In this document: positions 35,368 to 51,070 of the stretch, in pieces | Layout of the letters: each line of letters starts with the position of its first letter | Position numbering within the stretch: the stretch's first letter is position 1 | Notes under the pieces: model-generated | What the model was told of the DNA's origin: nothing | The model's database searches: none | What the model saw: the letters and a program-made list of their open reading frames with translations, nothing else | Program-made: the position numbers and the translations under genes | Source of the DNA: a virus | Lineage: Duplodnaviria; Caudoviricetes | Virus record (IMG/VR): IMGVR_UViG_3300024331_000061 | Coordinates: 1 to 64,000 of that record | Strand: one strand, 5' to 3' | Length of the DNA: 64,000 bases

Positions 35368-35937
35368 CTACCTGCCTGCCTGGGCTCGCTGGCGGACGCG
35401 GCTCGGGATGATGTCCTCGGCGTCCACCTGGCGAGCGCCAGCCCCCGGATCGCCGTCCCAGTTCTCGCTGCCCGGCTGCGGCTCCTGGCCCTCGGGCACC
35501 TCGCGGTACTCCACGGCTGAGCTGCCCGGCGGGTCCGGTCGCGCGAAGTCCGTCCCCGGCGGGGGAGGGGGCGGCGCATGCAGCGCGCCGGACACCGCCT
35601 TGGGCGGGACGCGGCGCAGCGGCTCGCTGGTCGATCCGGGTCCGGTGGCCGGGCGGATCACCGCGATCCGGCGTCCGTCCCTGACGCCGTGCCGCATGTA
35701 CGTCGCGGCCTCGGCCTCGGTCAGGTGCACCGTCTCGCCCGCCAGCACCAGGTCCGTGTTCTTCTCCGGGTCTCCCCGGCGCGGCACGGACAGCGGGATC
35801 AGGGCGATGTAGGGGTCACCGATGCGGACAGCGGGGGCCATGCCCGCGCTGGCCCGCGCGAGCAGGTCGTCCAGCGTCTTCTGCTCGCTGGCGGTGAGCG
35901 GCCGGGTTTCCTCGGCAGCCTTGGGCTGGGCGGGCAT
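35368..35937 (-). CDS. Hypothetical protein after major capsid gene
   Basis: 189 aa, TGATG coupled to MCP. Confidence 0.7.
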   Translation of the reverse strand: MPAQPKAAEETRPLTASEQKTLDDLLARASAGMAPAVRIGDPYIALIPLSVPRRGDPEKNTDLVLAGETVHLTEAEAATYMRHGVRDGRRIAVIRPATGPGSTSEPLRRVPPKAVSGALHAPPPPPPGTDFARPDPPGSSAVEYREVPEGQEPQPGSENWDGDPGAGARQVDAEDIIPSRVRQRAQAGR

Positions 35938-36848
35938 CAGACTCCAGAGAGCAGGCAGATGGCCAGCGGCTGGTCGAGGCCGATGGCGGAAGCCCGCTGG
36001 GTGTCGGAGCGCCAGGTCTTCCTGGGCTCGTCACGGTAGAGGGGACCGGCGACGTAGGGCAGCTCGTCCGCGAAGAACCCGGCGCGCTGGCGCTGCATGA
36101 CGATCGCGTTGCCAGCCGGGACCTGGCGGCTGACCAGCACGTCCAGGTTGAAGATCTTCTGCGGGAGCTTGCCGGTGTAGAGCAGGTTCTCGCTGGCGAT
36201 GTCACCGATGTACGGCGCGGCGAACGTGCTGCTCTGGAGCAGCGTGTTCTTGGTGCCGTGGTTGATGATCAGCGTGTCGGCCTCGAAGCCGAGCCACTGC
36301 GTGACCCCGGACGGGCTGACGATGTTGGCGTTCTCGATGAGGAAGCACGCCTGGGCCAGGTCAGCCCGGATGGTGGCCGCAGCCGACGCCCAGGTGTTGC
36401 TCACCGCGAGCGTCTGGATGCTGGAGTTGGCCACCACCGCCGAGTAGAAGGCGGTGTTCCAGCTGTAGACCATGGTGTTCTTGACCTGCATGAGCTGCCG
36501 GGTCACCGGGTCTACCGCCTGGCGGCGGCGCATCTCGTCCGAGAGCATGATGGCCATCGCGCGCTCGTGCGTGAAGACCACTCGCGGGATGCCGATGCTC
36601 GTCGGCACGACGGGCACCTCACCGAACTCTGGCCGGATCTCGGGGTAGTCATCCGCGTACAGCGGCGTGCTCTCCGAGTACCTGACTGCACCACTTGGTG
36701 CAGCCCCGCCCATGCGCAGCACCGAGTCCATCACGAACTCGTTCTGGGTCATGTCGAGGATGAGAGCAGGAATGACCAGGGGGTCCTTCAGCAGCTCATT
36801 GACGGTAATGCGCGGTGCATCGCTGTAGCCGCGAGTCCCTACCGGCAT
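35937..36848 (-). CDS. Major capsid protein (HK97 fold, capsid-E-like)
   Basis: 303 aa after protease and decoration genes; EFGEVPVV, DTLIINHGT, VLVSRQVP, GFFADELP; AAGGAG RBS. Confidence 0.85.
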   Translation of the reverse strand: MPVGTRGYSDAPRITVNELLKDPLVIPALILDMTQNEFVMDSVLRMGGAAPSGAVRYSESTPLYADDYPEIRPEFGEVPVVPTSIGIPRVVFTHERAMAIMLSDEMRRRQAVDPVTRQLMQVKNTMVYSWNTAFYSAVVANSSIQTLAVSNTWASAAATIRADLAQACFLIENANIVSPSGVTQWLGFEADTLIINHGTKNTLLQSSTFAAPYIGDIASENLLYTGKLPQKIFNLDVLVSRQVPAGNAIVMQRQRAGFFADELPYVAGPLYRDEPRKTWRSDTQRASAIGLDQPLAICLLSGV

Positions 36849-36871: not shown

Positions 36872-37369
36872 TCAGACGGTGAGTCGGACGCGGCCGAGGA
36901 AGAAGGATGCCGCGCCCTGGCCGCCGATCTGCTGGGTGAGCATGGCCGCAGCCACGCCTCCGGGGTGCGTGCACTTGCCGACGATCTGGTCCGTCGCGGG
37001 GGCGACACCGCCTGTGATGAGCGTGCCGTTGGCCGCTGCGATGACCAGCTGGCCCTGCGGCACCGCGCCCGAGAACCAGGCCCAGATGTCCGTGTGGCCG
37101 TAGTAGACGGACACGTAGTCGGTCAGCACGCTGATGTCGATCAGCGGCTGGCCGTAGGCGTTCGCCGCTCCGGTCTGGGTGGCGATGACGTTGGCGTCGT
37201 TGCCCGCGATGCCGAGCGCGAACTTGGACGCCGCCGTGCACGGCTTGACCGTGAGGTCCGTGGTGGGGTTGGTCACCGTAGTGAACTCAACGAGCTGTCC
37301 GCCGTAGATCAGCGTGCTGACCTGGAAGTTGGCAGGACCCATCTTGTAGTGCGGAAGGACTGCACTCAT
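36872..37369 (-). CDS. Capsid cement/decoration protein (DUF2190-like)
   Basis: IYGGQLVE...ALGIAGNDA...GAVPQGQLVIAAANG...IVGKC; position upstream of MCP. Confidence 0.65.
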   Translation of the reverse strand: MSAVLPHYKMGPANFQVSTLIYGGQLVEFTTVTNPTTDLTVKPCTAASKFALGIAGNDANVIATQTGAANAYGQPLIDISVLTDYVSVYYGHTDIWAWFSGAVPQGQLVIAAANGTLITGGVAPATDQIVGKCTHPGGVAAAMLTQQIGGQGAASFFLGRVRLTV

Positions 37370-37393
37370 CCGACTATCTCTCTTTCCGGGTTG

Positions 37394-37597
37394 CTAGCTG
37401 CCGTTCGATACGGCGAAGCCGAGTCCGAGCTGGTCGTGCATGGTGGTAGTGGCCACGGCCCGCAGGTTGCCCGCGCCGAGCGCGGTTACCTCGGCCGCGC
37501 TCAGCTCCAGCACCTGCTTGACGAAGACCACTTTGGCCGGGTGCTGGTAGTCGGTCGCCGCGATGGTGACCGGGACGGTTACGACGAATCGTGACAT
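37394..37597 (-). CDS. Small beta-rich virion-region protein
   Basis: 67 aa, ALGAGNLR motif. Confidence 0.65.
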   Translation of the reverse strand: MSRFVVTVPVTIAATDYQHPAKVVFVKQVLELSAAEVTALGAGNLRAVATTTMHDQLGLGFAVSNGS

Positions 37598-38794
37598 CTA
37601 CGACAGGCCCATCTGCTGCTTGGCCCGCGCGATCACGTCGGCGCGCGAGGTCTCCGCAGCGGTGGCCTGGGCGTCCTCGGGGCCTTCCATCGCGGAGCCC
37701 AGCTCCACGCCGAGGTCGAGCATCTGCGCCATCTTGGCGTACTCGCTCAGCACCCGGCGCATGACCTGGCCGGCGTCCACCCGCGTGCCGCCGGTCAGCT
37801 CGATCACGTGCCCGGAGCCCTGGAGCAGCGGCCGGGCCAGCTCGGTGATGTACGGCGGGATGCCGAGGTCAGCCAGGCTGCGCTTCTCGCCCTCGAACTT
37901 CTGGGCATCGAACTGGACCTGGAAGACACCCAGCTGGCGCTCGGTCTCGTCGGCGCGGGCGTTGGCCAGGTCGATGGCCATCTGGGCCTGGTTGGTCAGG
38001 CCGGTGGCGGCAGCGCCAGCCCCGGTCTCGGCCAGGAACTCGCTCTCCAGGTCGGCCAGGTCCTCGTCGCTCATCGCCTCGATGAGGTCGGCCAGCTCCT
38101 GGTCGGTCAGCTCGTTGTCGGGCTGGCCGCCGGTGCCGTTGGTGCCGCTGGCCGGGGGAGCTGGCGGTGCCGTGCCGAGCAGCTTGTCCAGGGCAGCCGC
38201 GTCCAGGTTGAGCAGCCTGGTCAGGTTGGCCTGCTGCTGGGCGTTCAGTTCGGGCATGGTGTCTTCCTCCCCAGCAAAGCTGGCTCCGGTGAGATCGATG
38301 ACAAGAGACGGCGTGTTGGCCGCCTCGATGGTCTGCCACGCGCCCAGACCGGGGATGCGCGGGTCCAGCGTGCCGAGGACGTGCTGCACGGCGGCGGGGT
38401 AGAACTTACCGTCTGACCTGGCATAATTCTCGACAATCCTGGCCGACACCCCCAAATACGGGTTCTCCCTCAGCACCTGCTCGCCGCGCTCGGTGGGCTG
38501 GAGGTACAGCCAGAGGCCGTCATCCTCGGAGCGGAGGTCCGTGATGGTGCCCCTGTGACGCTCGGGATCGTTGGTGTGCGTGTTCTTCGCGTCGGCTAGC
38601 TGGAAGGACACCTGGTCGTAGGCGCGGTCGCGGAACGCCTGCGCCAGGCTGTCGTTGTAGTCCTTGCTGAAGTGCAGCATGCGGCCCTGGTACTCCACGT
38701 CATCGACGGGCAGCACGCGCTTCTTCCAGAGCCGGTTGCCCAGCTCGATCGCGTTGCCCCGGAAGAACGGGGTCAGGACCGCAGCGGTATCCAT
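37598..38794 (-). CDS. Mu-like prohead protease with C-terminal scaffold
   Basis: N-terminal NTHTNDPE...DGLWL...LGVSARI...VLGTLDPRIPGL protease-like part; acidic coiled-coil C-terminal half. Confidence 0.8.
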   Translation of the reverse strand: MDTAAVLTPFFRGNAIELGNRLWKKRVLPVDDVEYQGRMLHFSKDYNDSLAQAFRDRAYDQVSFQLADAKNTHTNDPERHRGTITDLRSEDDGLWLYLQPTERGEQVLRENPYLGVSARIVENYARSDGKFYPAAVQHVLGTLDPRIPGLGAWQTIEAANTPSLVIDLTGASFAGEEDTMPELNAQQQANLTRLLNLDAAALDKLLGTAPPAPPASGTNGTGGQPDNELTDQELADLIEAMSDEDLADLESEFLAETGAGAAATGLTNQAQMAIDLANARADETERQLGVFQVQFDAQKFEGEKRSLADLGIPPYITELARPLLQGSGHVIELTGGTRVDAGQVMRRVLSEYAKMAQMLDLGVELGSAMEGPEDAQATAAETSRADVIARAKQQMGLS

Positions 38795-38796
38795 GG

Positions 38797-39519
38797 CTAC
38801 TTCCCGAAGTTGTCGGCCCGCTTGGCGAAGGCGTGCGCCTTCTCGGGCGGCCAGCCCTTGGCCCGCAGCTTCTTGTGCACGCTCTTGCCCTTGGGACCGA
38901 GGTCCTTGGGCGTGTCGTCATCCTCGTCATTGTCGTCGTCCGAGCTGCCTGAGCTGGTGACGCGAGCACCGTTCGATGAGCTGGAGTTCGGGAAGGCGAA
39001 CGTGCGGATGGCCGGGACGCCGAAGTGCTCCATCAGCGGGGTCTGGACGGCGGGCGGCTGGAGTCCGGGGGACTCAGCTGGCCTGGCCAGGCTGGCCGTG
39101 CCCTTGTTCCAGGTGGCGAGCAGCTCGCCCAGCGCGCCGCGCTGGTGCGTGTGCGGGCTCAGCTCCTTGCCCTCGTAGACGGCCTGCCAGCCCTGGTCCC
39201 CCTGCCGGATCTCCCCGATCATCCCGCCGCCCCGGCGGTGCCGGATCGAGGCGGTGCCCTGCGGCGTGCGGCTGACCAGCACGTCATTCGGGCTGGCAAC
39301 CGGGTAGCGCGGGGTAGCCATGTCAAGCTGCGTTGACAGGCTGACCGTCTCGGCACGGTAGCCGCACCGGGGACAGGCACCCGGCGCGGGGCTGTTGCCG
39401 TCGCCCGCGAACTCCATCACGCCCTGGCCGCGAGCACGGCTGGCGATGAAGGCGGCGAGTTCAGCTGGGTTCGCTGCCCCTCGCGCGGCGAGCGTTCCCG
39501 TTGCCAGGCGACCGGCCAT
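38797..39519 (-). CDS. Head-region modular protein
   Basis: Probable start MAGRL at 39519 (GGAGG RBS); CPRC, STQLDMA linker, basic C-terminal module. Confidence 0.65.
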   Translation of the reverse strand: MAGRLATGTLAARGAANPAELAAFIASRARGQGVMEFAGDGNSPAPGACPRCGYRAETVSLSTQLDMATPRYPVASPNDVLVSRTPQGTASIRHRRGGGMIGEIRQGDQGWQAVYEGKELSPHTHQRGALGELLATWNKGTASLARPAESPGLQPPAVQTPLMEHFGVPAIRTFAFPNSSSSNGARVTSSGSSDDDNDEDDDTPKDLGPKGKSVHKKLRAKGWPPEKAHAFAKRADNFGK

Positions 39520-39600
39520 GCGCCCTCCAAGTCTCAACCTCTACTTGAGAGTCAGCGTAGACCGTCAAGCGGCGGATGTTAGCACCCGCCGCGCCTGAAA

Positions 39601-39741
39601 TCAGGAATCACCACGCTGGATAGCCTCGTCAACGAACATTTCGGCGGCCTTCGCGGCGTCCTCGGGCTCCATGCCCTTGTCCTCGAACGAGTTCTTCATC
39701 ACGGTGATCGCGGTCTGCCGGACATCCTCGGGAACTGGCAT
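39601..39741 (-). CDS. 46-aa acidic helical protein (below ORF-track cutoff)
   Basis: MPVPEDVRQTAITVMKNSFEDKGMEPEDAAKAAEMFVDEAIQRGDS; TGATG coupled. Confidence 0.6.
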   Translation of the reverse strand: MPVPEDVRQTAITVMKNSFEDKGMEPEDAAKAAEMFVDEAIQRGDS

Positions 39742-40424
39742 CAGACCTTCTTGACGAACTCGGTGATGAGCTGGACGGCGATAGGCCCGAGCGCGGCTGC
39801 GATGGCAATCATCGGGGCCACGCCGACTGCGGACAGGGCCATGGCGATGATGGCACCCGCCAGCGCCACGCCGCCCTCGATGGCCAGCCGCGTCCGGGCC
39901 GCCTTCTGCTCCTTGAGGTCCTGCGCGGCCTTGGTGGCTTCCAGCTCCTTGTTGGTCTTGTCAACCTTGTCGATGATCTCGTGCACGATCGCGGCGTGCT
40001 CGGCGCGCAGCTGCCCGGCCATCTCGGCTGCGGCGGCTGCGGCGCGGGCCTTCGCCACGGCATCTACCTCCGGGGCCACCTTGGGCAGCTCCCCAGACCC
40101 GGACTTGGACTTGTCCTTGGCCTGGCTGCTGATCAGCACGGCCCCGCGCGTCCACTCGCCGTGCAGCCCGCGCATCTCGTGCTCCCATGCGGCCAGGTCC
40201 ATCACCTGCTCAGCGATCCCGGCGAGCTGCACCGGGGCCAGCCTGGCCAGCATGGTGCCCACGTCCTGGATCTCGCGCAGCGCGGCCCCGGTGGCCGACC
40301 TGGCCAGCTCGCGGACCCTGGACCGGCCCTCGGCCGCACGGGCGGCCGGGTCCTCGTAGACCCAGCTCAGCACGCCGTACGCCTGCCGCCCCTGGAGCGT
40401 GTCACCGCCAGCCCTGGCACCCAT
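39741..40424 (-). CDS. Head-region protein with linker motif, coiled coil and C-terminal TM segments
   Basis: EQVMDLAAWEHEMRGLHGEW; hydrophobic C-terminus. Confidence 0.75.
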   Translation of the reverse strand: MGARAGGDTLQGRQAYGVLSWVYEDPAARAAEGRSRVRELARSATGAALREIQDVGTMLARLAPVQLAGIAEQVMDLAAWEHEMRGLHGEWTRGAVLISSQAKDKSKSGSGELPKVAPEVDAVAKARAAAAAAEMAGQLRAEHAAIVHEIIDKVDKTNKELEATKAAQDLKEQKAARTRLAIEGGVALAGAIIAMALSAVGVAPMIAIAAALGPIAVQLITEFVKKV

Positions 40425-43400
40425 CAGGCTGCTCTCCCTTCACGGGCCATGCGCTCAGTATGCGCCGTCTGGTGCACGGTGCGGACGGCGGCGCGGTGCG
40501 CGTTCACGGCGGCTTCCTGCCCGGACCAGGCTTCCAGGATGGCCCGCCTGGTCTCGACCTCCACCCTGGCCATCGCTATCTCATCCGTCAGCAGCGGCGC
40601 GTCGGGCGAGTCCTTCAGCGCGGCCATGATCACCTGGCGGGCCATCACGTTCACCTTGCGGGACGCGCCCTCGCGGTTGATCTCGTCGGACAGCTCACGG
40701 GTCCGGGCGTAGCCGGGCGTGCTCATCCGCAGGTCGCCGTGGCCCTCGTCCTGGGCCACCTGCTGCACCCAGTCCTGGGCCATGGCGGTCTGCCAGCCGT
40801 AGTGCCCCCAGGCGCTGCCGTTCTTGATCTTCACCGGGTCCTGGGCCGCCAGGGCCATGTCCGCCAGCGTCTGCATCTGGAACCGCATCACGCCCGGCTC
40901 CGCAACCTTCCGTTCCCCGATGCCCATCGCCTTGAGGAACTCGGGGGCGTGGTGGATGGTGGCCAGCTCCGTGAACCCTTCCTCGATCGCGCCCGTGGCC
41001 GGGTCCTGGTAGGCGCGCTGGTGGTCGCTGTATTCCTCGCGGTACAGGGTCCTGATGCCGAACGACCGGCGCTTTTCGTTGATCTTGGCCTCGCTGCCGC
41101 CGATGTCCGCGTGGGTGAACTCGTGCAGCAGCACCTCAGCTGAGTCAGGGTGATCGACCGGGCGGAACTGGTGGGCCATCATTTCCTCGATGCTCCTGGC
41201 CACCACGCCTGAGACTTGCAGCTCCCCGGACCAGCTCATCTGACCGGCGGTGTCGGGGTCATCGATGCCCACGGTGACCTTGCCGTTCCACGCCTCGCGC
41301 CCGCCGCCCAGCAGGCCCGGCACCAGCGGAGCGCCTTTGGCCGCGAAGTCCCTGACGGCCTTGTGCATCGACTCGTAGGACCCCTCGCCCTGGAGCGGCG
41401 GGATGTCCTCCCCGGAGGGCGGGGTCTCCCTGCCGACCGCCGAGCCGTCGAGCCACTTGTTCATGTGCGACCACCGGCCCCGGTCATCCCGGCTCTCCAG
41501 CGGGTTGAAGTGCCAGGCTAGGAGGACCTGATCCCGGATTGAACCGCCGTGGCCAGCTCGGCTGCCATCGCCAGCCGCTCGTCCTCGGGCAGGTCCGCGT
41601 AGCCCTCCGGGACCTTGACCAGCACCTTGGTTGGCGTGCTCTGTGATGCGTCCGCCACCGCTGCCTCCTGTCGGGATCTCGGCGTAGTCCGGGAGGCTGT
41701 AGACCGAGATCTGGTTCCGCGACCTGCCCGCCGCTACCGCCATGGACTTGCTGGCGAAGTTGTCGCTGGGCTCCAGCCACAGCTTGCCGTCGTGCACCCA
41801 TCCGCCCAGGTACGCCTGCTTCCCGGTGAACGAGTTCTTCTCGGCCATGATCATGTCATCGATGGCGCGGGTCAGCTTCGCGTGGTCGTCCAGGATGGCG
41901 GCCGGGTACGTGTGCGTGTGGTCTACCTGGGCCACCATGTACCCGCCGGGCGGGCTCTCTCCCGTCCGCACGCTGACGCTGAAGCCCTTGTGGTGCGCAG
42001 CAGCCGTACTGGCTGCGCTCTCAGCTGCGCCGAACCGGGTCCACCGTCCCCGGCTGTCCCGCAGCTCAGCCAGCTCGACAGCCTGCCCGCTGATGGTAGC
42101 CAGCCCGGCTGCCTTCTTCCTCAGGGCCAGGTAGTTCGCCCACCGGATCATCGTCTCGGTGTGCCAGAGCGAGCGCCCGTGGCTGGCGAAGTCAGCCTGC
42201 ATGGACCGCAGCCGGGCCTCCATGGCGCGGACCTCGCCCTCGGGGATGCCGTTGGGGTTGGCGAACAGGGCGCGGGTGAACGGGCTGACGGTGCCCTTCT
42301 GCCCGTTCGGGCCGACTACGCCCGGCCGGAAGCCGTTGGTGCCGTAGGCACTTGAATTGTCAATCGGGACCGGCTTGTCCCCGTCCATCAGGTAGTTGTG
42401 CGAATGCCTGTCCGGGTTGTCGATCAGGTAGTCGAGCATCCCGATCCGCAGGCCCCTCGGGCTGGAGAACAGGTCCGGCATCGCGTCGTACGGGTCCTCG
42501 GGGTCCACGTTGCGGTCTGCCAGGTAGCGCTCGGCCAGCACGCCCTTGCTGAAGGCCATGGTGACCTGCTTCGGCCCGCTGCGGTGCACGGCCGGTGCCC
42601 CGGTGCCCTCCACCGCGTCAGCCACGGTGGCCGCCAGCTCTTCGGAGTCGGCCAGGTCCTTGGCCGGGTGGCCCTGCCAGTCGAGCAGCGTCTTCTGGAC
42701 CGCCTTCTGGCCGTTGTTCAGAGTCAGGATCTCGGTCCTGCCCTGGAGCCCGTCACCGAGCTTCTTGTGCGAGGCGATCCCGCTGGCCAGGTCGCTGGCC
42801 ACCCGCGCCACGCCACCCCGCGTCCAGCGCCCGTGCCGGTCCCGCAGCTCGTGCTCCCAGACGGCCAGCTCGACGGCCTCGTTCCAGTCGCTGACCACCT
42901 GAGCCAGGCTGGTCGTGCCGGGGTGCAGCGGCAGGCCCTCGGCCCCGGCGTACTTCGCCCACTTAGCCCAGGCATTCCTCAGCATGGTCGTGCGGCCCTT
43001 GGCGCGGGCGTTCTCGGGGCTGGCGGGGTCGGCGGCCTGGACCGCCGTGACGGCCAGGTTGGCGCTCTGCTGGTGCAGCCAGGTGATGGCCTGGAGCTGG
43101 TGCGGCGCGATCGGCGTGCCCTGCTCGTTGAGCTGGCGGGCTGCCTCGCGGTACTGGTCCGCGACGTACTCGTGGTAGCGGGCCTTGCCGATCGGCGGCT
43201 CGATGTTGTCGGGCAGCCGTACGCCCATGGCCACGGACAGGGCGTGCCGGTCGATCACCACATGGCCCTTGGTGTCGGACGGGGCATCGCCGCCGTTCTC
43301 GATAAGGTGCGCGAACGCCCTGGTCTTGGGTGCCTGGAGCGCCTCGTCCACGGTGGCTCCGTCCAGGGCCTCCTGGGCGTTGGCCTGCATGGCCCCGCTG

Positions 43401-45892
43401 ATCAGCCCGTCCCCTGGCCCGAGCGCCCGGTGTTCCTCAGCCGCCCTGGCTGAGTTGAACATGTTGACCGGCCAGCTGGCCTGCGGGCTGTAGGCAGCCA
43501 GCAGGATCGCGCCCTTGCGGGCGTCCCCGTCAGCCATCTTGGCAGCCAGCATGTGGGCGTCGGCGTACCAGCGCATCCCCTGGGCCTTCTCCTGGTCCGA
43601 GGATGCCCTGTATGCCGCGATCACGTTGGCCGGGCTGACCGGGTGCGCCCTGAAGAACGGGTGGTCCTCCGGGTGCGGGTAGTTGATCGGGCTCTTGTTC
43701 TTCTTGATCAGCAGCCGCTCGTGCCTGGGCACCATATAACCCGCGCCCCTGCTCCATTGGCCGTGAGCATCCCGCTTCTCAGCCGGGTTGAACCGCCAGC
43801 CCAGATCCAGGGCCTGGGCGCTGATGCCAGCCCAGTTCTGCCCGCCAGCACCGGGAGCCGCGCCGGGTGCGATGTCGTTGAGCCGCGAGATCATCTGCGT
43901 GTACCAGTCATCGTGGCCCAGCCGGTGGAACTCGGGCTTGATCGTGGCCAGGCCCTCTACCAGCTGCTCGTACTCGGCCGTGTCCAGGACCTCGTTGTGC
44001 CAGAAGGGGCTGTTGGTCCCGTAGCTGCTGGCGAAGCCGCCGCTCATGTCGATGGGCACCGGCACGTCATCCGGGGTGATCATCCAGTTGAAGTCGTGCC
44101 GGTCGGGGTTGGAGATCAGGTAGTCGAGCACACCGATCTTGTGGCCCTGGGGGTTGTCCTCGCTCTCCAGGTCGTAGGTGTCAGCGCCGCCTGAGTAGTT
44201 CCCGGCCACCTCGCCGGGCACGAAGCCCATGATGATCTCGTCGGGCTCGCCGTCCGTCAGGCGGGCTACCGGCGGTGCGCCAGCCCCGACTACCTGGCTG
44301 ACGTAGTAGGACAGCTCGTCGGCGTCCGGCATGGACTGGTAGCCGGATAGGTACTTCTTGTGCACGACCTTCTCGCCGCTGGGCAGCGTGACGATCTCGA
44401 CGGTGCCCTGGATGCCGTCACTGGAGTCCTCGGAATCACCCATGGCCAGGTCATCCTCGGTGATCTCCTGGAGCTTCCTGACCTCTGGGCTGTTGTGGCC
44501 GACCTCTTCTGGCGGGCTCGGCATGCCCGGCAGCAGGTACTGCTTGACGCCGGGGGCCACCATGACGCCAGGCGGGCTCGGGCTCGGCGGCGGCGGCGTC
44601 GGCTGCTTAGCCGGTTCCTCCATCGCCCGCAGGGCCGTGTCGGACACGTGATGCTCGTTACCGGCCCCGTCGGTGATCAGCCAGGGCGCATCCGGGTTAG
44701 GCGGGTGCGGGTCGAGTGCGACCCACGCCATCGGCCCCGGCCCGCTGACCACCCGGAACTGCATCCCGGCCATGCGATTGATGTCCGGCGGCTTTGTCGG
44801 GCCGAGCAGCGAAGCCGAGTGGTGCTCAGCCATCCTCCTGGCCCAGGCTGCGGCCCCGATCGCGGGCATCTGGGAGATCGGCTGCTCCTGCCGGATGACC
44901 CCGCCGTTCTTCCAGTCGATCAGCCGCCGCATGCCGTCGGGCGCATCGACCACCACGTGGCCGCCTGCCACGGCCACGACACGGCCCTGGAGGCCCATGC
45001 TGCTCTGGGCCAGGTCCCCCTCCTTCGGAGCCCCGGTCCTCGGCATGATGCCAGTGCCCCGGAAATTCCAGGCTCCGGGGATGTGCGGCGGGACGGCGGG
45101 CAGTGCCGGGCCGACCTCGGACAGCGGGACGGTGTGCACGGGCACCCCGCCGTTGCGCCAGTCCACCAGGTGCCGCATGCGGTCGTTGGCGTCGATGGCC
45201 GCGTGACCGCCCGCCACGGAGATGACGGTGCCCCAGACGCCCTGGCTGTTCTTGGCCTGGTCCCCGACTCGCGGCTCCGTGACGATCTGGTTGCTGATGA
45301 GGCCGCCCCGGACGAACTGCCACGCGCCGAGCAGGTGAGGCACGGGCACGGCACGCCCGGCCCTCAGCGCCCTGTTCCGCTCGGCCTCTCGCTGCATGGC
45401 CTCGCGGCCCTCTTTCAGCGTGCTCGCGCCCTGCGGGAACGGGTGAGCATGCCGGATGATCTGGCCCTGCTCATCGACGGTCCAGGTCTGTCCGCCAGCC
45501 CTCCTGTTGTCGTGCTGCTTGGCCTTCAGCTCGGCAGCCGGTGTCCAGGGCCGGGATACGGGAGCCGGGTGCATCCGGTCCCACTCGGCCATGTGCTGAC
45601 GACGCTGGGCGAGCTGACTGCGGATCGTCTCCGGGCCGTTGCCCTCGGCCTTCAGCCGCCGGGCGATGGCCTGCTCGGTGATGCCGCCGCCGAACTGCTG
45701 GCGGCCCGCCTTGTCCCGTTCATGCGCCGCCTTCTGCCTGTAAACCTCGCTCGGCCAGCCCTGGCGCGCGTTCTCGCGGGCGAAGGTGTCCGGCCGCCAG
45801 GTCGTCTTGATCCACCGGCCGTGGCTGTCCCTCGGGTGCAGGACGCTGTTGAAGAACGCCAGCTCCAGGATCTGCTCGCTGATGGTCGTCAC
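40424..45892 (-). CDS. 1822-aa modular head-associated polyprotein (2 PI3/PI4K/HipA-like kinases, glycosylase-like domain, unknown domain, HExxH peptidase)
   Basis: DYLI-x-NPDRH-x-x-N twice, HEFTH...EEGFTE, five linker motifs ending RD-x-x-G-x-W; GTGA/TGATG coupling. Confidence 0.8.
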   Translation of the reverse strand: MTTISEQILELAFFNSVLHPRDSHGRWIKTTWRPDTFARENARQGWPSEVYRQKAAHERDKAGRQQFGGGITEQAIARRLKAEGNGPETIRSQLAQRRQHMAEWDRMHPAPVSRPWTPAAELKAKQHDNRRAGGQTWTVDEQGQIIRHAHPFPQGASTLKEGREAMQREAERNRALRAGRAVPVPHLLGAWQFVRGGLISNQIVTEPRVGDQAKNSQGVWGTVISVAGGHAAIDANDRMRHLVDWRNGGVPVHTVPLSEVGPALPAVPPHIPGAWNFRGTGIMPRTGAPKEGDLAQSSMGLQGRVVAVAGGHVVVDAPDGMRRLIDWKNGGVIRQEQPISQMPAIGAAAWARRMAEHHSASLLGPTKPPDINRMAGMQFRVVSGPGPMAWVALDPHPPNPDAPWLITDGAGNEHHVSDTALRAMEEPAKQPTPPPPSPSPPGVMVAPGVKQYLLPGMPSPPEEVGHNSPEVRKLQEITEDDLAMGDSEDSSDGIQGTVEIVTLPSGEKVVHKKYLSGYQSMPDADELSYYVSQVVGAGAPPVARLTDGEPDEIIMGFVPGEVAGNYSGGADTYDLESEDNPQGHKIGVLDYLISNPDRHDFNWMITPDDVPVPIDMSGGFASSYGTNSPFWHNEVLDTAEYEQLVEGLATIKPEFHRLGHDDWYTQMISRLNDIAPGAAPGAGGQNWAGISAQALDLGWRFNPAEKRDAHGQWSRGAGYMVPRHERLLIKKNKSPINYPHPEDHPFFRAHPVSPANVIAAYRASSDQEKAQGMRWYADAHMLAAKMADGDARKGAILLAAYSPQASWPVNMFNSARAAEEHRALGPGDGLISGAMQANAQEALDGATVDEALQAPKTRAFAHLIENGGDAPSDTKGHVVIDRHALSVAMGVRLPDNIEPPIGKARYHEYVADQYREAARQLNEQGTPIAPHQLQAITWLHQQSANLAVTAVQAADPASPENARAKGRTTMLRNAWAKWAKYAGAEGLPLHPGTTSLAQVVSDWNEAVELAVWEHELRDRHGRWTRGGVARVASDLASGIASHKKLGDGLQGRTEILTLNNGQKAVQKTLLDWQGHPAKDLADSEELAATVADAVEGTGAPAVHRSGPKQVTMAFSKGVLAERYLADRNVDPEDPYDAMPDLFSSPRGLRIGMLDYLIDNPDRHSHNYLMDGDKPVPIDNSSAYGTNGFRPGVVGPNGQKGTVSPFTRALFANPNGIPEGEVRAMEARLRSMQADFASHGRSLWHTETMIRWANYLALRKKAAGLATISGQAVELAELRDSRGRWTRFGAAESAASTAAAHHKGFSVSVRTGESPPGGYMVAQVDHTHTYPAAILDDHAKLTRAIDDMIMAEKNSFTGKQAYLGGWVHDGKLWLEPSDNFASKSMAVAAGRSRNQISVYSLPDYAEIPTGGSGGGRITEHANQGAGQGPGGLRGPARGRAAGDGSRAGHGGSIRDQVLLAWHFNPLESRDDRGRWSHMNKWLDGSAVGRETPPSGEDIPPLQGEGSYESMHKAVRDFAAKGAPLVPGLLGGGREAWNGKVTVGIDDPDTAGQMSWSGELQVSGVVARSIEEMMAHQFRPVDHPDSAEVLLHEFTHADIGGSEAKINEKRRSFGIRTLYREEYSDHQRAYQDPATGAIEEGFTELATIHHAPEFLKAMGIGERKVAEPGVMRFQMQTLADMALAAQDPVKIKNGSAWGHYGWQTAMAQDWVQQVAQDEGHGDLRMSTPGYARTRELSDEINREGASRKVNVMARQVIMAALKDSPDAPLLTDEIAMARVEVETRRAILEAWSGQEAAVNAHRAAVRTVHQTAHTERMAREGRAA

Positions 45893-46083
45893 GGGCGAGC
45901 CCAGACGTAGCCGTTGCTCCAGCCGTTCAGGACCCTGAACGCTTCCTCGGGATCACCGCCTGCCTTACGGACGGCTGAGTCGGCCATGGTCTGGAGGCTA
46001 GGGGAGCTGGCCAGCAGCCGCCCGGCGTCCAGGCTGATCGTGCCGAGCTGGCCCTTGGCGTCGAACACCCGCAGCGTAGCCAT
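45889..46083 (-). CDS. Small hypothetical protein
   Basis: 64 aa, translationally coupled on both sides. Confidence 0.65.
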   Translation of the reverse strand: MATLRVFDAKGQLGTISLDAGRLLASSPSLQTMADSAVRKAGGDPEEAFRVLNGWSNGYVWARP

Positions 46084-48602
46084 CAGCTAGCCAGCAGGAT
46101 GCCATCTGGCTCATTGGCCAGGGCGATCTGCTTCAGGTCGGCCGCGATCTGCACGTTGAGCTGGTGGATCTGCGCCCGGAGCGACGTGATCAGCTGCCCC
46201 CTGGTCGGGGCCTTCTTGCCCGCCGGTCCCTTCCTGGCCGGTGCGCCCTTCTTGGCTGGCGTGGCCGCCGCCGTCTTGCCGGTGGCCCCGGCCTTCTGGG
46301 CAGCCTTCGTGGTCTTCTGCTTGACCACCGTCAGCTTGGCCAGCTGCGCGGTGAGCAGCTTCAGCTTGGCCCGGTCAGCCTTGACCCGCGCCCGGAGCTG
46401 CTGCTTGCTCAGGCCCGCAGATGCCGTCGTGCCGCCGCCTCCCCAGGTGCCGACCGGCGTCCGGGCCTGCGCCGGGTTGAACCCGGCCAGCTCGATCGCA
46501 TCGAGCACGTCGCCCCAGCTGTGCGCGTGGGCTCGGGCCTGCTTGGCGCTCCAGTCCGCGCTGGTGGCCGCCGAGGCGGCCCGCACCTCGGGCCTGACGT
46601 TGCCGCCGCCAGCCGCCCAGCGCTTGGATGCGCCCCGCGCGATGGCGATGGCCTGGCTGAGCGTCTTGGCCCGGCCGGTGCGCAGCAGAGCCCTGGCGAT
46701 GTTCTGGATGTACGGCGGCAGCTCCATGCCCTTGACGCCCCAGAGCCCCGGCCCGCCCGGCTTGCCGAACGGGTGCGGCTCGGTCGCCAGCCTGCCGGTG
46801 TCGGCGCTCAGCAGGATCGCGGCGTCGATGTCTTCCCAGCTGGCCTGGATGGTGGCCATGATGCCTTGCTTGATCTTGGCGTAGTAGGCGGGGTCCGCGA
46901 TGCCCAGCATCTTGGATTGCGCCGGGCTGAATGCGGGCATGGACGCCAGCGCCTCGAAGTCCTGGATCTTCTGCGCCGCTGACGCATCCCGCCGGTAGGT
47001 CCTGGCGTCCGCCGTGACCGCAGGCCCGTGCGAGTGGAGCTGGCCGGGGTGGGCCGCGTGCAGGTCCTCGTGCACCTTCACGAAGTCCTCGTAGGTGCGG
47101 GTCTCGCGGTTGAACCCGGTGCGGCCGGTGGGCAGCCCGAGCTGGTGGCCCTCCGCGATGTGCTTGATCATCGCTGCCCTGGTCTTGGGGATGCCGTGGA
47201 AGACCCAGCCGTGGCTGTAGCCCTTCGGGCCGGTCAGCTCGATCGCGTCGAGCACGTCAGCCCAGCTGAACTGGATGGTGGGCGGGCCTGGCGGCATCTC
47301 CAGGCTGCCGCTGGCCGACCAGGCGGCCACGTCGTTGTTCCAGCCCGCGACCTTCTTGCCGAACGTGGTGCCTGGTGTCGCCGCCTCTGCCTTCTTCGCC
47401 TTCCGGGCAGCCAGCTCCTGCTGGTATTGCAGGTCCCTGGCCCGGTTCTCGTGGATGTGCGCCAGCACGCTGTCCCCGCCCTCGCGGGCCACCTGCGCAC
47501 TGCGCAGCTCACCCGCGATCTGCTGGGAGAGCTTGTCCTTCTTGACCCCGGCGGCGCGGGCACCGCGCTGGAGCTGGATGTTGGCGAGGACCTCATCGCC
47601 GCCCTCGCGGGAGACCTGGGCGGACCTGAGCCAGCCGTGGCTCCAGCCACCCGGTCCTACCAGCTCTACCGCTGCACCCGTTGAACTCGCCTGGATCATG
47701 GCCCGGCGGGCTCGTTCCTCGGCCACCAGCCTGTGCAGCTTGTGCTTGTGCCCCTCGGAGCTGAACATGTTGGCGAAGCCCCTGGCCTCGCGCTTGGACA
47801 GGTGCCTGCCGAACGGCTGGTTGAGCCGTCCTGCCGTCGCCTCCAGGGACGCCCCGGCCTCTACCTGCCGCAGCCAGCCGTGGCTCCAGCCGCCGGGTCC
47901 GGTCAGCTCGACGCCGCCAGCCGGGTTGGCGTGCTTCTGCCCGAGCTTGGCGAAGCCCTTGCGCCCGTACTTCTTCCGCCCGATGTACGCGGCCAGCGCA
48001 CCTGGGTTCCTCGCGCCCCTCTTGGCCAGCGCGCCCTTCAGCGCGCTGAAGTTCTTGCCGCTGCCCGGCTTGGCCCCGGCGAACGTAGCCAGCCCGATCA
48101 CGCCGTCGAGGTCCTCCCAGGACAGCGCCTTGAGATGCTGAGCCTGCGGGGAGACCGCAGGCGCGGCGGCGACGGGTCCTGGTGCACCATTCGGTGCACC
48201 GACGGGGACGGGCTGGCTGGACGGCAGGAACGTCTTACCGCTGGCCGCCGCCATCGCCCGCTTCTGCTCCATGAACCCCTCGTTGCGGGCTCGCACGTCA
48301 TCGATGTCCTTGACGTTGAGCAGGTGCCGGTACGCCTGCTGCATGTAGAGCTTGGCTGCCATGTGGCCCTGGTCGTCGTGCACGCCGTGGCGGGTGATCT
48401 GGAGCGGGGCGAAGCCCTCGATAGCGGCGTTCAGGTGCCGCCTGGCTCCCTCTGTGCGCCCGCTGTCCAGCTCGCGGGCAGCGTCGGCCAGGTGGTCGTG
48501 CACGCTCATGTCGGGGAAGGTCTGGGCCACCTGAGCTGCGAGCTTGCGGATGCCCGCGCTGGTGCGCTGCTTCATGGGGGTGGTTGGGGTGATCCTAGTC
48601 AT
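46083..48602 (-). CDS. 839-aa modular basic head-associated polyprotein
   Basis: Start MTRIT at 48602 (ATGA with MuF); six (SW-x-D-x-x-x-x-)(V/I)-x-L-(A/T/S/V) linkers. Confidence 0.75.
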   Translation of the reverse strand: MTRITPTTPMKQRTSAGIRKLAAQVAQTFPDMSVHDHLADAARELDSGRTEGARRHLNAAIEGFAPLQITRHGVHDDQGHMAAKLYMQQAYRHLLNVKDIDDVRARNEGFMEQKRAMAAASGKTFLPSSQPVPVGAPNGAPGPVAAAPAVSPQAQHLKALSWEDLDGVIGLATFAGAKPGSGKNFSALKGALAKRGARNPGALAAYIGRKKYGRKGFAKLGQKHANPAGGVELTGPGGWSHGWLRQVEAGASLEATAGRLNQPFGRHLSKREARGFANMFSSEGHKHKLHRLVAEERARRAMIQASSTGAAVELVGPGGWSHGWLRSAQVSREGGDEVLANIQLQRGARAAGVKKDKLSQQIAGELRSAQVAREGGDSVLAHIHENRARDLQYQQELAARKAKKAEAATPGTTFGKKVAGWNNDVAAWSASGSLEMPPGPPTIQFSWADVLDAIELTGPKGYSHGWVFHGIPKTRAAMIKHIAEGHQLGLPTGRTGFNRETRTYEDFVKVHEDLHAAHPGQLHSHGPAVTADARTYRRDASAAQKIQDFEALASMPAFSPAQSKMLGIADPAYYAKIKQGIMATIQASWEDIDAAILLSADTGRLATEPHPFGKPGGPGLWGVKGMELPPYIQNIARALLRTGRAKTLSQAIAIARGASKRWAAGGGNVRPEVRAASAATSADWSAKQARAHAHSWGDVLDAIELAGFNPAQARTPVGTWGGGGTTASAGLSKQQLRARVKADRAKLKLLTAQLAKLTVVKQKTTKAAQKAGATGKTAAATPAKKGAPARKGPAGKKAPTRGQLITSLRAQIHQLNVQIAADLKQIALANEPDGILLAS

Positions 48603-49285
48603 GCCACTCGTACCAGCCTCCTGAACGACGCGCCGTGGGCGCTTGGCAGCATTCTCGCACCGATGTGCGCCGGACCTGGGTAACAGCGGCAGTGCGGATG
48701 CACCGCGCCGGGCCAGCCGATCAGCGGGATGGCCGTGGCCTCGAAGTTCTTCCCGTTGGCCGCCTTGCACTCGGTGCTCGTGCGTGCGTCGAGCACCGTG
48801 TTCCAGCCGAGCAGGTTGCCGTAGGTCATGGCCGCCGAATCCACCTGGGCAGCTGCCTTCGCCCGGTTCCACATCGCGTCGAGATGCTGGCCGAAGTACC
48901 GTCGCTCGCGCGCAATTGCATCTGCAAGCGCCTTCTGCAACGGCTGACCGTGGCTGCGGGCCTCGGTCAGGTCGCTAGTAACGCGGCGGCCAGCTGCGAG
49001 GGCGAACTGAGCCCGCCGCAGGTAGTTCTGCCGTGCGGTCGTCAGGGACGCGGAACCAGCGACCCCCGTCCTCTCCGGTGGAAAGCTCATCACCATATCC
49101 AGGACGGCCAGCATCGAGGCGGGTTGCACCTGGGACGTACGGAAGGACGGAAGTAGGCTCGTCAGGACCGCCATGGGTGTCACCGCCGAGGCCAGCGCCG
49201 TGGCCAGGGCCGCGATAATGGCCGTATCTGTCGCCGTAACCGGCGAGGATGGCGGGGGCGGCGGCTGCTGAGCGGGCGTAGTCAT
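48599..49285 (-). CDS. MuF-like minor capsid / head morphogenesis protein
   Basis: LGWNTVLDARTSTECKAANG...PGAVHPHCRC; follows portal. Confidence 0.8.
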   Translation of the reverse strand: MTTPAQQPPPPPSSPVTATDTAIIAALATALASAVTPMAVLTSLLPSFRTSQVQPASMLAVLDMVMSFPPERTGVAGSASLTTARQNYLRRAQFALAAGRRVTSDLTEARSHGQPLQKALADAIARERRYFGQHLDAMWNRAKAAAQVDSAAMTYGNLLGWNTVLDARTSTECKAANGKNFEATAIPLIGWPGAVHPHCRCYPGPAHIGARMLPSAHGASFRRLVRVA

Positions 49286-49478
49286 CTGGATCGACTCCCA
49301 TCGCTACCAGCATGCGCCTGTGCAGGTGCCAGGCCAAGCGCACCCGCTCCGTGTGCTGCCTGTCCGCGTAGACCCGCAGCCGGTGCACCCGGTACATCAG
49401 GATCACCGTCATGACCAGGCTGGCTGCGATGCCCGCCGTGACGAGCTGCTGGAAGTGCTGGTGCCAGTAAACACTCAT
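48975..49478 (-). CDS. Membrane protein ORF whose 3' part overlaps MuF
   Basis: TGATG coupled to portal; N-terminal TM; last 311 nt overlap MuF in another frame. Confidence 0.4.
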   Translation of the reverse strand: MSVYWHQHFQQLVTAGIAASLVMTVILMYRVHRLRVYADRQHTERVRLAWHLHRRMLVAMGVDPDDYARSAAAAPAILAGYGDRYGHYRGPGHGAGLGGDTHGGPDEPTSVLPYVPGATRLDAGRPGYGDELSTGEDGGRWFRVPDDRTAELPAAGSVRPRSWPPRY

Positions 49479-51070
49479 CAGCCAGGTTTACCAGCTCGGG
49501 CGGCTGGTGTCGGCCCGGCCATCAAAGATCCCGCCCTGGGCGGCCTCGGCGGCCCGCTGACTGGCTGCGCGCCCGGAGGCGGCGGCGGGCGCAGCCCTGG
49601 TGCGCCACCCGGCCGCGCCCCCGCCTGCTGCACGATACCGTGAGCGGCCCCAGCCAGCCCCTGGAGCTGTCCTATGGACCCGGCGGTCTCCGGGGGCAGG
49701 CCCGGCGGCGGGTTCTGCGTCATGGCTTCCTGGCGCTGCGTGGCGGTGGCGATCAGCGCCGCGTGCACCTGGTCCACGTCGAGCTGGAGGATGCTGGCCA
49801 TGCGCTCGGTGATCAGGTCGAACACCTGGAGCGGAACGTGCAGGACGGGGGCGGCTGCCATGGTCTGGAACATGGTGAGCAGCGCGGCCTGCTGCTCGTC
49901 CTGGAGCGGGCCGAACTTGGCGCTGGGGAACGCGGCCTCGGGGCCGAAGTTGAGTAGCACCAGCGGCCGGATGATGCCGTGGGAGTAGGCTTCCGCCTGC
50001 TCTTTCGCCACGCCCTGCCTGCTCTTGAGGTAGAACGATGACTGGTCCTGGCTCAGCGAAAAGCTGCCCTTGCCGCCCATTGCGGAGCCGGTCAGGCCCA
50101 TGAACCCAGCCAGGACAGAGTGGGTCTGCCAGCCCTCCAGGAACGCCATGGCCTCAGCGAAGAACTTGCCGCCGTCCCCGCTGGACTCCAGCACGTCGAA
50201 CAGCTTCTTGTCCTCGGACGGGTGCACCATGCCGACCACGCCGCTGGACTTCAGCGAGGCGATCGAGTCGGCCTTGTCGTTGGCCTCGGCCTGGTCGTTG
50301 CCGTAGACCACGGTCCTGGGCAGCGCCTGGACCTCCAGGAAGTGATACCAGAGGTAGAGCAGCTTCATCTTGGTCTGGTAGCACCAGTAGGCCACCTCCA
50401 TCTCGGACGCGCCGATCAGGGGCTCGCGGTGCTTGCCGTGGGTGTAGATGAAGCTCCGCACGTGCGGGATGTCCACGTAGCCGGGCGTCTTGGACTTGCT
50501 GCTCAGGGCCATCTGGCCGCCGAACAGCCAGACCTGCTGGCGGAACCCGTGCTCGGCCGCCGTGCGCGAGTTATACCGGGCCTGGCAGGTGGACACCGGC
50601 CGGAACGCGATCTTGTCGTAGATGATCTTGCCGTCGTCCGGGCGGACCTTCCAGACCTTCTCGAAGAAGGCCCGGCGGTAGATCTGGCCGCTGGTGATCT
50701 GGCCGATCAGGTCCACGTTCTGCGTCTGCATGCCGCCGTTGTGGTCCGGGGTGAGCAGCACGCTGTTGACGAAATCGGCCTCGCCCTTGTCACCCTTGGC
50801 TGGGTTGATGCTGAAGTCGGCTTCGCGGATCGGCAGGGTAAGCACGCTCTCGACGGACTGGCAGATGCCGTCCCGCTGGAACATCACCTTCATGTCCCGG
50901 CTGGTCCACTCGCCGTAATCGAACACGTCGCCGCCGCCGTAGTAGGCGAACAGCCGCTGCCCGATGTCGAACTGGGTGCCGATCTCCTTGCCCAGCAGCT
51001 GGCTCTTGGTCGTCTTGATGTCAGGCAGCTTCAGGACCTGCGCCAGCTGACCATCCTGCTTCTGGGCCAT
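49478..51070 (-). CDS. Portal protein (DUF935/Mu gp29-like)
   Basis: AFFEKVW, AYWCYQTK...WYHFLEVQALP, IIRPLVLLNFG; between terL and MuF. Confidence 0.88.
   Translation of the reverse strand: MAQKQDGQLAQVLKLPDIKTTKSQLLGKEIGTQFDIGQRLFAYYGGGDVFDYGEWTSRDMKVMFQRDGICQSVESVLTLPIREADFSINPAKGDKGEADFVNSVLLTPDHNGGMQTQNVDLIGQITSGQIYRRAFFEKVWKVRPDDGKIIYDKIAFRPVSTCQARYNSRTAAEHGFRQQVWLFGGQMALSSKSKTPGYVDIPHVRSFIYTHGKHREPLIGASEMEVAYWCYQTKMKLLYLWYHFLEVQALPRTVVYGNDQAEANDKADSIASLKSSGVVGMVHPSEDKKLFDVLESSGDGGKFFAEAMAFLEGWQTHSVLAGFMGLTGSAMGGKGSFSLSQDQSSFYLKSRQGVAKEQAEAYSHGIIRPLVLLNFGPEAAFPSAKFGPLQDEQQAALLTMFQTMAAAPVLHVPLQVFDLITERMASILQLDVDQVHAALIATATQRQEAMTQNPPPGLPPETAGSIGQLQGLAGAAHGIVQQAGARPGGAPGLRPPPPPGAQPVSGPPRPPRAGSLMAGPTPAARAGKPG

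Follow-up and report, generated by a model that had tools for sequence, protein, structure and literature searches.

The injection of payload proteins together with phage DNA brings into the cell enzymes that can disarm the host before phage genes are expressed, and the choice, loading, and re-assortment of such payloads have been worked out mainly in phage T4 and the giant phages. The closest described systems are the polyvalent proteins of Iyer et al. (2017; PMC5512222), multi-effector proteins packaged by portal-terminase phages, in which unrelated effector domains (kinases, ADP-ribosyltransferases, ParB, 2H phosphoesterase, GNAT, and zincin domains) are joined in one chain, and which are encoded beside portal-terminase genes, have shuffled architectures, and, by prediction, are packaged and travel with the DNA into the recipient cell. 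Here, we describe a protein of 1822 amino acids (aa), referred to as P0001, that shares these features and is encoded at positions 40424-45892 on the minus strand of the first 64 kb (the window; G+C content 66-72%) of the 83.8-kb IMG/VR virus record IMGVR_UViG_3300024331_000061, from an uncultured soil phage (Caudoviricetes). P0001 fits the definition of a polyvalent protein given by Iyer et al. (2017): it combines at least two unrelated effector-type domains in one polypeptide (PF00454 twice, PF23802, and a HExxH module) and lies in a portal-terminase packaging context, in a gene order that is repeated in the related loci L002 and L003. It differs from the published proteins in that each of its modules is preceded by one conserved two-part peptide, the linker, and in that a gp21-type head protease with matching sites offers a better candidate for the cutting than the embedded zincins to which that paper, which has no recurrent junction peptide, assigns the processing (PMC5512222). 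Its kinase-like domains are of the PI3/PI4 kind, whereas those of Iyer et al. are of a truncated Ser/Thr/Tyr type (PMC5512222), and its DUF7178 domain is apparently not among the domains named there (PMC5512222).

Several other systems resemble P0001 in part. With the internal proteins (IPI-III) and Alt of phage T4 it has in common a head protease with the gp21/assemblin fold, for which cutting of itself and of the scaffold is predicted here as it is known in T4, short sites with an acidic residue, an N-terminal leader on the cargo (PMC5694885), and, in P0001 by inference, the injection of the cargo with the DNA. The T4 cargo is, however, encoded by separate small genes, each with a single leader of about 10 residues, which is cut off (Mullaney and Black 1996; PMC5694885), whereas in P0001 up to five cargos are chained through a junction of about 30 residues, the second half of which is predicted to stay; searches of Pfam and PHROGs gave no match to the T4 internal proteins, Alt, or their leader, and the relation is one of working principle only. 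The ejection proteins of phiKZ, 201phi2-1, and SPN3US, which are processed by gp175/gp245, are comparable in their shared Glu-ending motif, their multiple sites, and the autocleavage of the protease (PMC5694885, PMC10052503), but these are jumbo myoviruses with separate genes and N-terminal propeptides, in which no repeated tag is kept between modules, and there are no reports of cassettes being swapped at the site. The MuF polymorphic toxins (Jamet et al. 2017; PMC5576092) tie a variable effector, including zeta toxin and ADP-ribosyltransferase kinds, to a MuF domain; they consist of one N-terminal MuF fused to one C-terminal toxin, with neither linker nor cleavage mentioned (PMC5576092), whereas in this phage the 228-aa MuF-like protein has a gene of its own and the cargo protein has five modules. 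A search of P0001 with Pfam found no MuF domain, and the contrast with single-toxin MuF fusions that an earlier reading of the window from its letters alone (the sequence-only reading) had drawn can be kept. In encapsulins, short conserved cargo-loading peptides direct unrelated proteins into an HK97-fold shell; these peptides mostly lie at the C-terminus, attach to the shell protein, and have no link to cleavage. The likeness to P0001 lies in a short conserved peptide carried by otherwise unrelated proteins, and the difference in the position of its tag, which is N-terminal to the modules and would be cleavage-linked. A recurrent junction peptide is mentioned neither in PMC5512222 nor in PMC5576092, in both of which the word "linker" occurs 0 times, and a text search of the literature for motif strings (PRDxxG, RDxxGRW, and similar) found no papers. 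What is undescribed is the two-part junction, whereas the concept of a multi-effector virion protein is already known; the sequence-only reading, in speaking of a new kind of system, went too far in view of the published polyvalent proteins (PMC5512222).

P0001 is open for 1822 codons from a GTG start, and both its start and its stop overlap the neighbouring genes. The linker is about 30 aa long, with the consensus I-S-x-Q-x-φ-[ED]-L-[AG] ... E-x-R-D-x-x-G-R-W, and occurs in five copies in P0001 and in a sixth in P0003, the protein encoded directly downstream; one copy lies at residue 1 of P0001, one ahead of every later module, and none after the last. A hidden Markov model (HMM) built from 61 linker copies of other proteins, none of them from this window (the leave-out HMM), recovers all six copies with independent E values of 1e-9 to 1e-15, the next match in the window having an E value of 0.07. 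The organization of P0001 from its N-terminus is listed below, with bit scores from the leave-out HMM and values of the predicted local distance difference test (pLDDT) for linkers 2 and 3:

45797-45892, minus strand (aa 1-32): linker 1, at the extreme N-terminus; 32 bits
43847-45796, minus strand (aa 33-682): module 1, PI3/PI4-kinase-like domain with a DRHxxN loop near aa 600
43739-43846, minus strand (aa 683-718): linker 2; 52.5 bits, pLDDT 40-55
42911-43738, minus strand (aa 719-994): module 2, DUF7178, all-alpha, with a predicted HhH-GPD glycosylase fold
42809-42910, minus strand (aa 995-1028): linker 3; 43 bits, pLDDT 49-69
42116-42808, minus strand (aa 1029-1259): module 3, second PI3/PI4-kinase-like domain
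42026-42115, minus strand (aa 1260-1289): linker 4; 33.6 bits
41561-42025, minus strand (aa 1290-1444): module 4, conserved 155 aa with a weak phrog_17808 match only
41456-41560, minus strand (aa 1445-1479): linker 5; 36 bits, first half degenerate (V-L-L-A)
40427-41455, minus strand (aa 1480-1822): module 5, HEFTH at aa 1590 and a downstream I-E-E-G-F-T-E helix

The open reading frame and the five linkers are those that the sequence-only reading had reported, its linker positions being right to within a few codons (aa 4-27, 690-713, 1005-1023, 1267-1284, and 1452-1474, that is, 45812-45883, 43754-43825, 42824-42880, 42041-42094, and 41471-41539); the N-terminal linker copy, the two-part make-up, and the occurrence of the core half in other phage lineages had escaped it. 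The regular expression [RH]D..G[RQEK][WF], applied to all six frames of the window, matches only the five places in P0001, a looser expression adds the single site at 40152-40172 in P0003, and a profile search of the whole 83.8-kb genome returns the same six places only, the P0003 copy scoring 62.9 bits. Because the DNA copies of the linker are only 71-76% identical to one another, the linker appears to be conserved as a peptide, and selection is taken to act on the peptide and not on its DNA. It is also predicted to be flexible, with AlphaFold2 (AF2) pLDDT values of 40-69 for linkers 2 and 3 against more than 90 for the DUF7178 core.

The linkers bound distinct domains, as had been proposed. 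DUF7178 (PF23802; E value 3.8e-36; 125.3 bits, cut-off 27) occupies aa 755-939, in the interval from linker 2 to linker 3, and linkers 3 and 4 enclose the second kinase-like domain. PF00454 matches P0001 in two stretches (E value 7.6e-10, 39.5 bits against a cut-off of 27.1), in which only the catalytic-loop region aligns, and D-R-H-x-x-N loops can be read in both kinase-like modules (N-P-D-R-H-D-F-N and N-P-D-R-H-S-H-N). Ahead of its kinase, module 1 has an N-terminal part with two tandem repeats of about 82 aa, followed by a Pro-rich spacer; these Gly/Val-rich repeats (44898-45265, minus strand; 122 nt at 74% identity) resemble small beta domains. Structure prediction, one of the checks suggested by the sequence-only reading, agrees with the linker boundaries: in a model of aa 683-1031 folded with a 51-row alignment (pLDDT 86, predicted template modelling score 0.81), the DUF7178 core, at a pLDDT above 90, is flanked by low-confidence linkers. 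In an exhaustive structural comparison of this model with VIA, the top 22 structures were all OGG, MagIII, EndoIII, MutY, AlkA, or DUF2419, with Z scores from 9.8 (3n0u) down to 5.1 and a drop to 3.8 thereafter, and Foldseek alone was weak (E value 0.35, prob 0.85); as modelled, DUF7178 shares the fold of the HhH-GPD DNA glycosylase superfamily. In module 5, the HExxH motif and the Glu-rich helix are conserved in the consensus of its relatives, and these motifs make it a candidate zincin-like metallopeptidase, with zero matches to Pfam or NCBIfam peptidase models and a weak feature-based lead to Peptidase_M78. A phmmer search of P0001 and of the head protease P0025 against PDB sequences gave nothing useful.

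A word-indexed search with P0001 retrieved 20 homologues of 1,024-1,983 aa, making a family of 21 with P0001, and a search of viral contigs for loci related to P0001 found none. The 20 homologues carry 61 further linker copies, which align cleanly and in which R, G, and W are nearly invariant; in 19 of these proteins, one linker starts at residue 1-28, with the others ahead of each module. When each protein was cut at its linkers and the pieces were clustered, the architectures of the family were found to differ by whole modules and by module order. Pfam identifies Arr-type (Arr-ms) and exotoxin-type (ADPrib_exo_Tox) ADP-ribosyltransferases and Zeta_toxin among the alternative modules, and Abhydrolase_8, ParB_N, and 2H ligase among further modules of linker-bearing homologues; module 4 is present in 8 of the 21 family members. 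P0001 aligns collinearly with P0006 up to residues 1028/965, the last residue of linker 3 in both, and does so again from 1263/1151, where linker 4 starts; the interval holds a kinase in P0001 and an Arr-ms domain in P0006 (Pfam match from residue 966). P0008 departs from P0001 at the same point (1028/801), into a zeta toxin. The homologues compared exchange modules exactly at the linkers, as had been foreseen for swappable modules bounded by this peptide.

The P0001 gene lies in a head module whose genes are all on the minus strand, in the order TerL, portal, MuF-like gene, P0001, protease-scaffold gene, and capsid, and these genes are read as one late operon because their starts and stops overlap:

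53492-55072, minus strand: large terminase (TerL)
51330-53006, minus strand: Ro60/TROVE + vWA gene (PF05731, E value 1e-32; PF25045, E value 4e-51; phrog_850)
49478-51070, minus strand: Mu-type portal protein
48599-49285, minus strand: short MuF/SPP1-gp7-like gene (Phage_Mu_F, TIGR01641), 228 aa, no fused effector
46083-48602, minus strand: 839-aa basic protein with about six sibling junctions
between the 839-aa gene and P0001, minus strand: 64-aa open reading frame
40424-45892, minus strand: P0001, 1822-aa polyvalent polyprotein, an open reading frame
39741-40424, minus strand: P0003, 227 aa, directly downstream of P0001
between P0003 and P0025, minus strand: P0026, 246 aa
37598-38794, minus strand: P0025, 398 aa, predicted prohead protease with a scaffold-like part, by fold comparison
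between P0025 and the capsid gene, minus strand: 67-aa open reading frame and 165-aa protein
35937-36848, minus strand: major capsid protein

The sequence-only reading had put the gene between a short MuF without a fused toxin and the prohead protease. The MuF-like gene is indeed short and free of a fused effector (Pfam Phage_Mu_F E value 1.1e-5 and TIGR01641 E value 3.5e-6, both under cut-off), and the two genes do lie on either side of P0001, but they are not its immediate neighbours, being separated from it by the 839-aa gene and the 64-aa frame upstream and by the 227- and 246-aa genes downstream. In all nine contexts examined, the polyprotein gene is found among head-morphogenesis genes, downstream of the portal wherever a portal is in view, and seven of the nine also show a capsid or head-protease gene downstream of it.

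A head protease had been predicted from the sequence, and fold comparison points to P0025. Searches of Pfam, PHROGs, and NCBIfam gave zero matches for this protein and for P0002, P0003, and P0026, and in the language-model neighbour cluster of P0025, 26% of the members carry Mu-like_Pro. Folded with 46 homologues, P0025 is modelled as a confident beta domain over its first 145 residues and as helical in the remainder. With residues 1-144, Foldseek places T4 gp21 (5jbl) first (E value 4e-4, prob 1.0), followed by the cytomegalovirus protease, and the independent aligner VIA gives gp21 a Z score of 9.4 (128 residues, root-mean-square deviation 3.6) and the varicella (VZV) protease a Z score of 6.1; His73, Ser117, Asp128, His138, and Asp144 are invariant across the 46 homologues. 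On its model, P0025 is a gp21/assemblin-type prohead protease (aa 1-145) fused to a helical scaffold-like part, and its family of protease-scaffold proteins has at least 688 members and no Pfam match. Three homologues of 518-536 aa (P0089, P0120, and P0135), one of which is named 'phosphatase PhoE' in its source, cover 43-51% of P0025 at 68-69% identity and may be part of the protease-scaffold protein fused to another domain.

The characterized gp21-type proteases (T4, phiKZ, 201phi2-1, SPN3US) all cut C-terminal to Glu, and those studied also cut themselves and the scaffold (PMC5694885). In the phage described here, the short form of the first half of the linker is also found in P0025, P0002, P0003, and P0026. 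Within the window proteins (19,119 aa in all), the pattern φ-φ-[ED]-[LF]-[AGT] is found 21 times; the block 36872-48872 holds 14 of these sites (binomial p 4e-6, or 1.4e-3 when the linkers themselves are left out), and P0025 holds five, against 0.18 expected (p 1.4e-6). The pattern was chosen after the linkers had been seen, so that the enrichment is partly post hoc and the p-values are generous. Four to five φ-φ-[DE]-L-small sites are conserved in P0025, and across its 46 homologues D167-L168, at the low-confidence boundary between protease and scaffold, L333, and E364 are invariant, and the sites of the helical part as a whole are invariant or almost so. The major capsid protein carries no such site and, because the site is absent from its sequence, is presumably uncleaved.

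The linker reaches far beyond the family of P0001. A 15-copy linker profile, searched against 1.84 billion representative proteins, matched 278 protein clusters at E values of 1e-3 or less and 77 at 1e-10 or less, mostly with 2-7 copies at domain-sized spacing; in a set of 155 proteins with the linker, 83 show a copy that lies no further in than residue 12, and the median spacing is 264 aa. In a census of 45 matched proteins, DUF7178 was the commonest module (35 proteins), followed by alpha/beta hydrolases, ParB, zeta toxin, ADP-ribosyltransferases, 2H ligase, and GNAT. A second class of proteins matches only the core of the linker, [FY]-[ND]-P-x-[EQ]-P-R-D-x-x-G-R-W-T-x-G-G. Copies of this kind punctuate giant proteins that bear the ART-PolyVal domain of Iyer et al. 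or an internal MuF domain, a further likeness to the polyvalent proteins, and whose genes follow the portal gene in head modules that encode HK97- or Mu-type capsids and a Peptidase_S78 or S78_2 protease; the residues directly upstream of the core differ in these giants and are mostly K-[AFY], and MuF is adjacent or embedded in most contexts seen. There are also stand-alone proteins that begin with the core, as M-A-F-N-P (P0222, P0258) or M-T-F-N-P (P0265).

Among cultured phages, a tblastn search of 50,697 records with the full-linker consensus gave chance-level Synechococcus matches only. Weak matches to the core motif fall on the N-termini of basic head-module proteins of Mycobacterium and Nocardia phages: gp18 of Mycobacterium phage DrLupo (L004, 6004-6642) starts with M-A-Y-N-P-L-Q-A-R-D-R-K-G-R-W, and a protein of Nocardia phage P3.1 (L005, 5989-6699) with ..K-F-N-P-R-Q-P-R-D-L-R-G-R-W. 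From these sequences, Barnyard-group mycobacteriophages appear to carry a stand-alone tagged protein. Both proteins are annotated 'capsid maturation protease' yet are Lys/Arg-rich, neither has a protease match in Pfam, and the annotation seems doubtful. A linker-like match in P0271/P0270, from the exhaustive search, was rejected, these being unrelated tandem-repeat proteins. Two loci with core copies show further peculiarities. At L007 5934-9356, a 1140-aa protein joins a Mu-type portal to a zeta toxin/AAA_33 domain, directly upstream of a MuF-like gene and of a 1399-aa ART-PolyVal protein with seven H-P-R-D-D-H-G-R-W copies. At L006 16197-16720, the stop codon of a Peptidase_S78_2 gene is followed in frame by K-A-F-N-A-D-E-A-R-D-D-H-G-K-W, which may reflect read-through, an error in sequencing, or a wrongly called start of the head gene that follows; neighbouring genes there, for an ADP-ribosyltransferase (14410-15687) and for a protein of 162 aa, also bear core tags.

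Taken together, these observations lead us to lean towards the following account, in which P0001 is a head-operon polyvalent protein whose linkers are cut by P0025 and whose modules, each keeping a tag, enter the host with the DNA. That the protein is packaged, cleaved at the place proposed, and delivered, and what the tag does, we infer from gene position and motifs. The five effector-type modules would be made as a single chain from a gene inside the head-assembly operon. The linker itself probably, if by no wide measure, consists of two parts, a lineage-specific protease site in its first half and a widely shared tag in its second. The first half, I-S-x-Q-x-φ-[ED]-L-[AG], would be the cutting site of P0025, cut after the acidic residue, and the second half, W-x-F-N-P-x-E-x-R-D-x-x-G-R-W-T-x-G, would stay on the N-terminus of each freed module, where it would most likely serve the loading, retention, or exit of cargo in portal/MuF-type heads; the freed modules would then enter the host along with the DNA. 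Because the junction is a self-contained unit, phages could exchange whole modules at it by recombination. The stand-alone M-A-F-N-P proteins fit this cut model because they start one residue past the proposed cut.

Several observations speak against this account and have to be set beside the post hoc choice of the short-site pattern. Linker 5 has no acidic residue in its first half (V-L-L-A), and the L007 lineage, with its Mu-like capsid, likewise has a non-acidic residue ahead of the conserved Leu, while its protease-scaffold candidate has no detectable similarity to P0025. In N-terminal linker copies the first half is usually retained, even though no module precedes it that would have to be cut off; this would fit a short propeptide and equally a single uncut binding unit. 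The core matches in cultured phages are weak (16-19 bits; tblastn E values of 2-8), and the polyprotein holds its own HExxH module, the published candidate for the processing of such proteins.

This last point leads to the alternative that survives best, although we hold it to be unlikely: that the embedded zincin-like module does the cutting, before packaging or after injection, with the linker as its recognition site. Metallopeptidases of this kind are the hub domain among polyvalent proteins and have been predicted to carry out their processing (PMC5512222), the HExxH motif followed by the I-E-E-G-F-T-E helix is found in the last module of P0001 and in that of 12 of the 21 family members, and the persistence of the core across lineages with different head proteases would suit a protease that travels with its cargo. 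Against this, 8 of the 21 members have no HExxH anywhere in the polyprotein, module 5 matches no peptidase model beyond its weak Peptidase_M78 lead, and the recurrence of the first-half site in P0025, P0002, P0003, and P0026 is what would be expected of a head protease that acts on itself and on the scaffold as well.

A further alternative, which we regard as rather improbable, is that the linker is not cut at all and acts as a flexible docking peptide through which the intact polyprotein binds a head component (portal, MuF, scaffold, or capsid interior) multivalently, and at the same time as a neutral joint that tolerates domain shuffling. At about 30 residues, the conserved unit is far longer than a protease site, its R, G, and W are nearly invariant, both halves are kept in the N-terminal copies, and MuF is near or within the protein in most contexts; moreover, uncut transfer is known for the virion RNA polymerase of N4 and for several polyvalent proteins of plasmids (PMC5512222). 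An uncut linker would leave unexplained why its first half matches sites in the protease-scaffold and other head-interior proteins that have no second half, and why stand-alone tagged proteins begin exactly after the predicted cut; by reasoning only, a folded chain of 1822 aa and five domains would also be hard to thread uncut through a tail channel.

That P0001 is not virion cargo, being instead a late-expressed multi-enzyme protein of the cytoplasm that is encoded among the head genes by chance and whose peptide has a role unconnected with the capsid, for example as a host-protease or host-factor site, is highly improbable: the independence of the core from the head-protease family leaves room for a host partner, but the head-gene position recurs in every context seen and in at least three head lineages, some versions embed a MuF domain, the start and stop codons overlap neighbouring head genes, and the short sites are shared with the protease-scaffold protein. 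Three other explanations of the linker were dropped: RHS/YD repeats (Y-D-x-x-G-R-L), the linker copies lying 100-700 aa apart and not about 20 aa; self-cleavage at Asn-Pro or Asp-Pro, many copies carrying W-E-H-E-L in place of F-N-P; and a DNA-level recombination signal, in view of the DNA identities given above.

To return to the cut and retained linker, its spread suggests a more general possibility, which we put forward tentatively and with less assurance than the account of P0001 itself. The core [FY]-[ND]-P-x-[EQ]-x-R-D-x-x-G-[RK]-W-T may be a general portable cargo tag of portal/MuF-type tailed phages, whatever their head protease, with the upstream residues as the lineage-specific cut site that exposes it; an N-terminal tag of this kind would load or retain any protein in the prohead and/or prime its ejection.

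Some further features of the locus deserve mention. P0003 consists of a ~70-aa N-terminal piece, the full linker (nt 40128-40238), a coiled coil, and two hydrophobic C-terminal segments, a layout from which it may be a membrane-inserting ejection protein; its counterpart in L003 (9312-9845) has a linker ending in G-R-F. The 839-aa protein is built of short modules with a junction of its own, ..D-A-I-E-L-[TA]-G-P-x-G-[WY]-S-H-G-W, copies of which repeat at the DNA level (47203/47629/47872; 46483/47230), and has a Lys/Ala/Pro-rich C-terminal tail; the last of these sibling junctions resembles the full P0001 linker. Its gene is listed as a 929-aa open reading frame, the start of which is overextended, the orthologues in L002 and L003 beginning near 48602. 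The Ro60/TROVE + vWA gene is placed between the terminase and the portal, and the tape measure protein (26017-29997, minus strand, 1326 aa) has NlpC/P60 and SLT_3 lysozyme-like domains close to its C-terminus.

The rule that emerges is that a two-part peptide stands ahead of every payload module and marks the exact points of exchange, with its core present in at least 278 clusters from phages that differ in their head proteases. DUF7178, the commonest module, gains a fold assignment (HhH-GPD glycosylase-like, by its model), and a large protease-scaffold family without a Pfam match can now be identified, on the same kind of evidence, as gp21-like. If loading or ejection is what the tag signals, it would make virion cargo predictable from sequence, account for the modular evolution of polyvalent proteins, and give a means of introducing reporter or effector proteins into phage heads. 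The Barnyard-group mycobacteriophages, which are cultured, offer a tractable test system. Should the tag prove portable in the general sense, one peptide would explain how payloads are built and re-assorted across hundreds of phage lineages.

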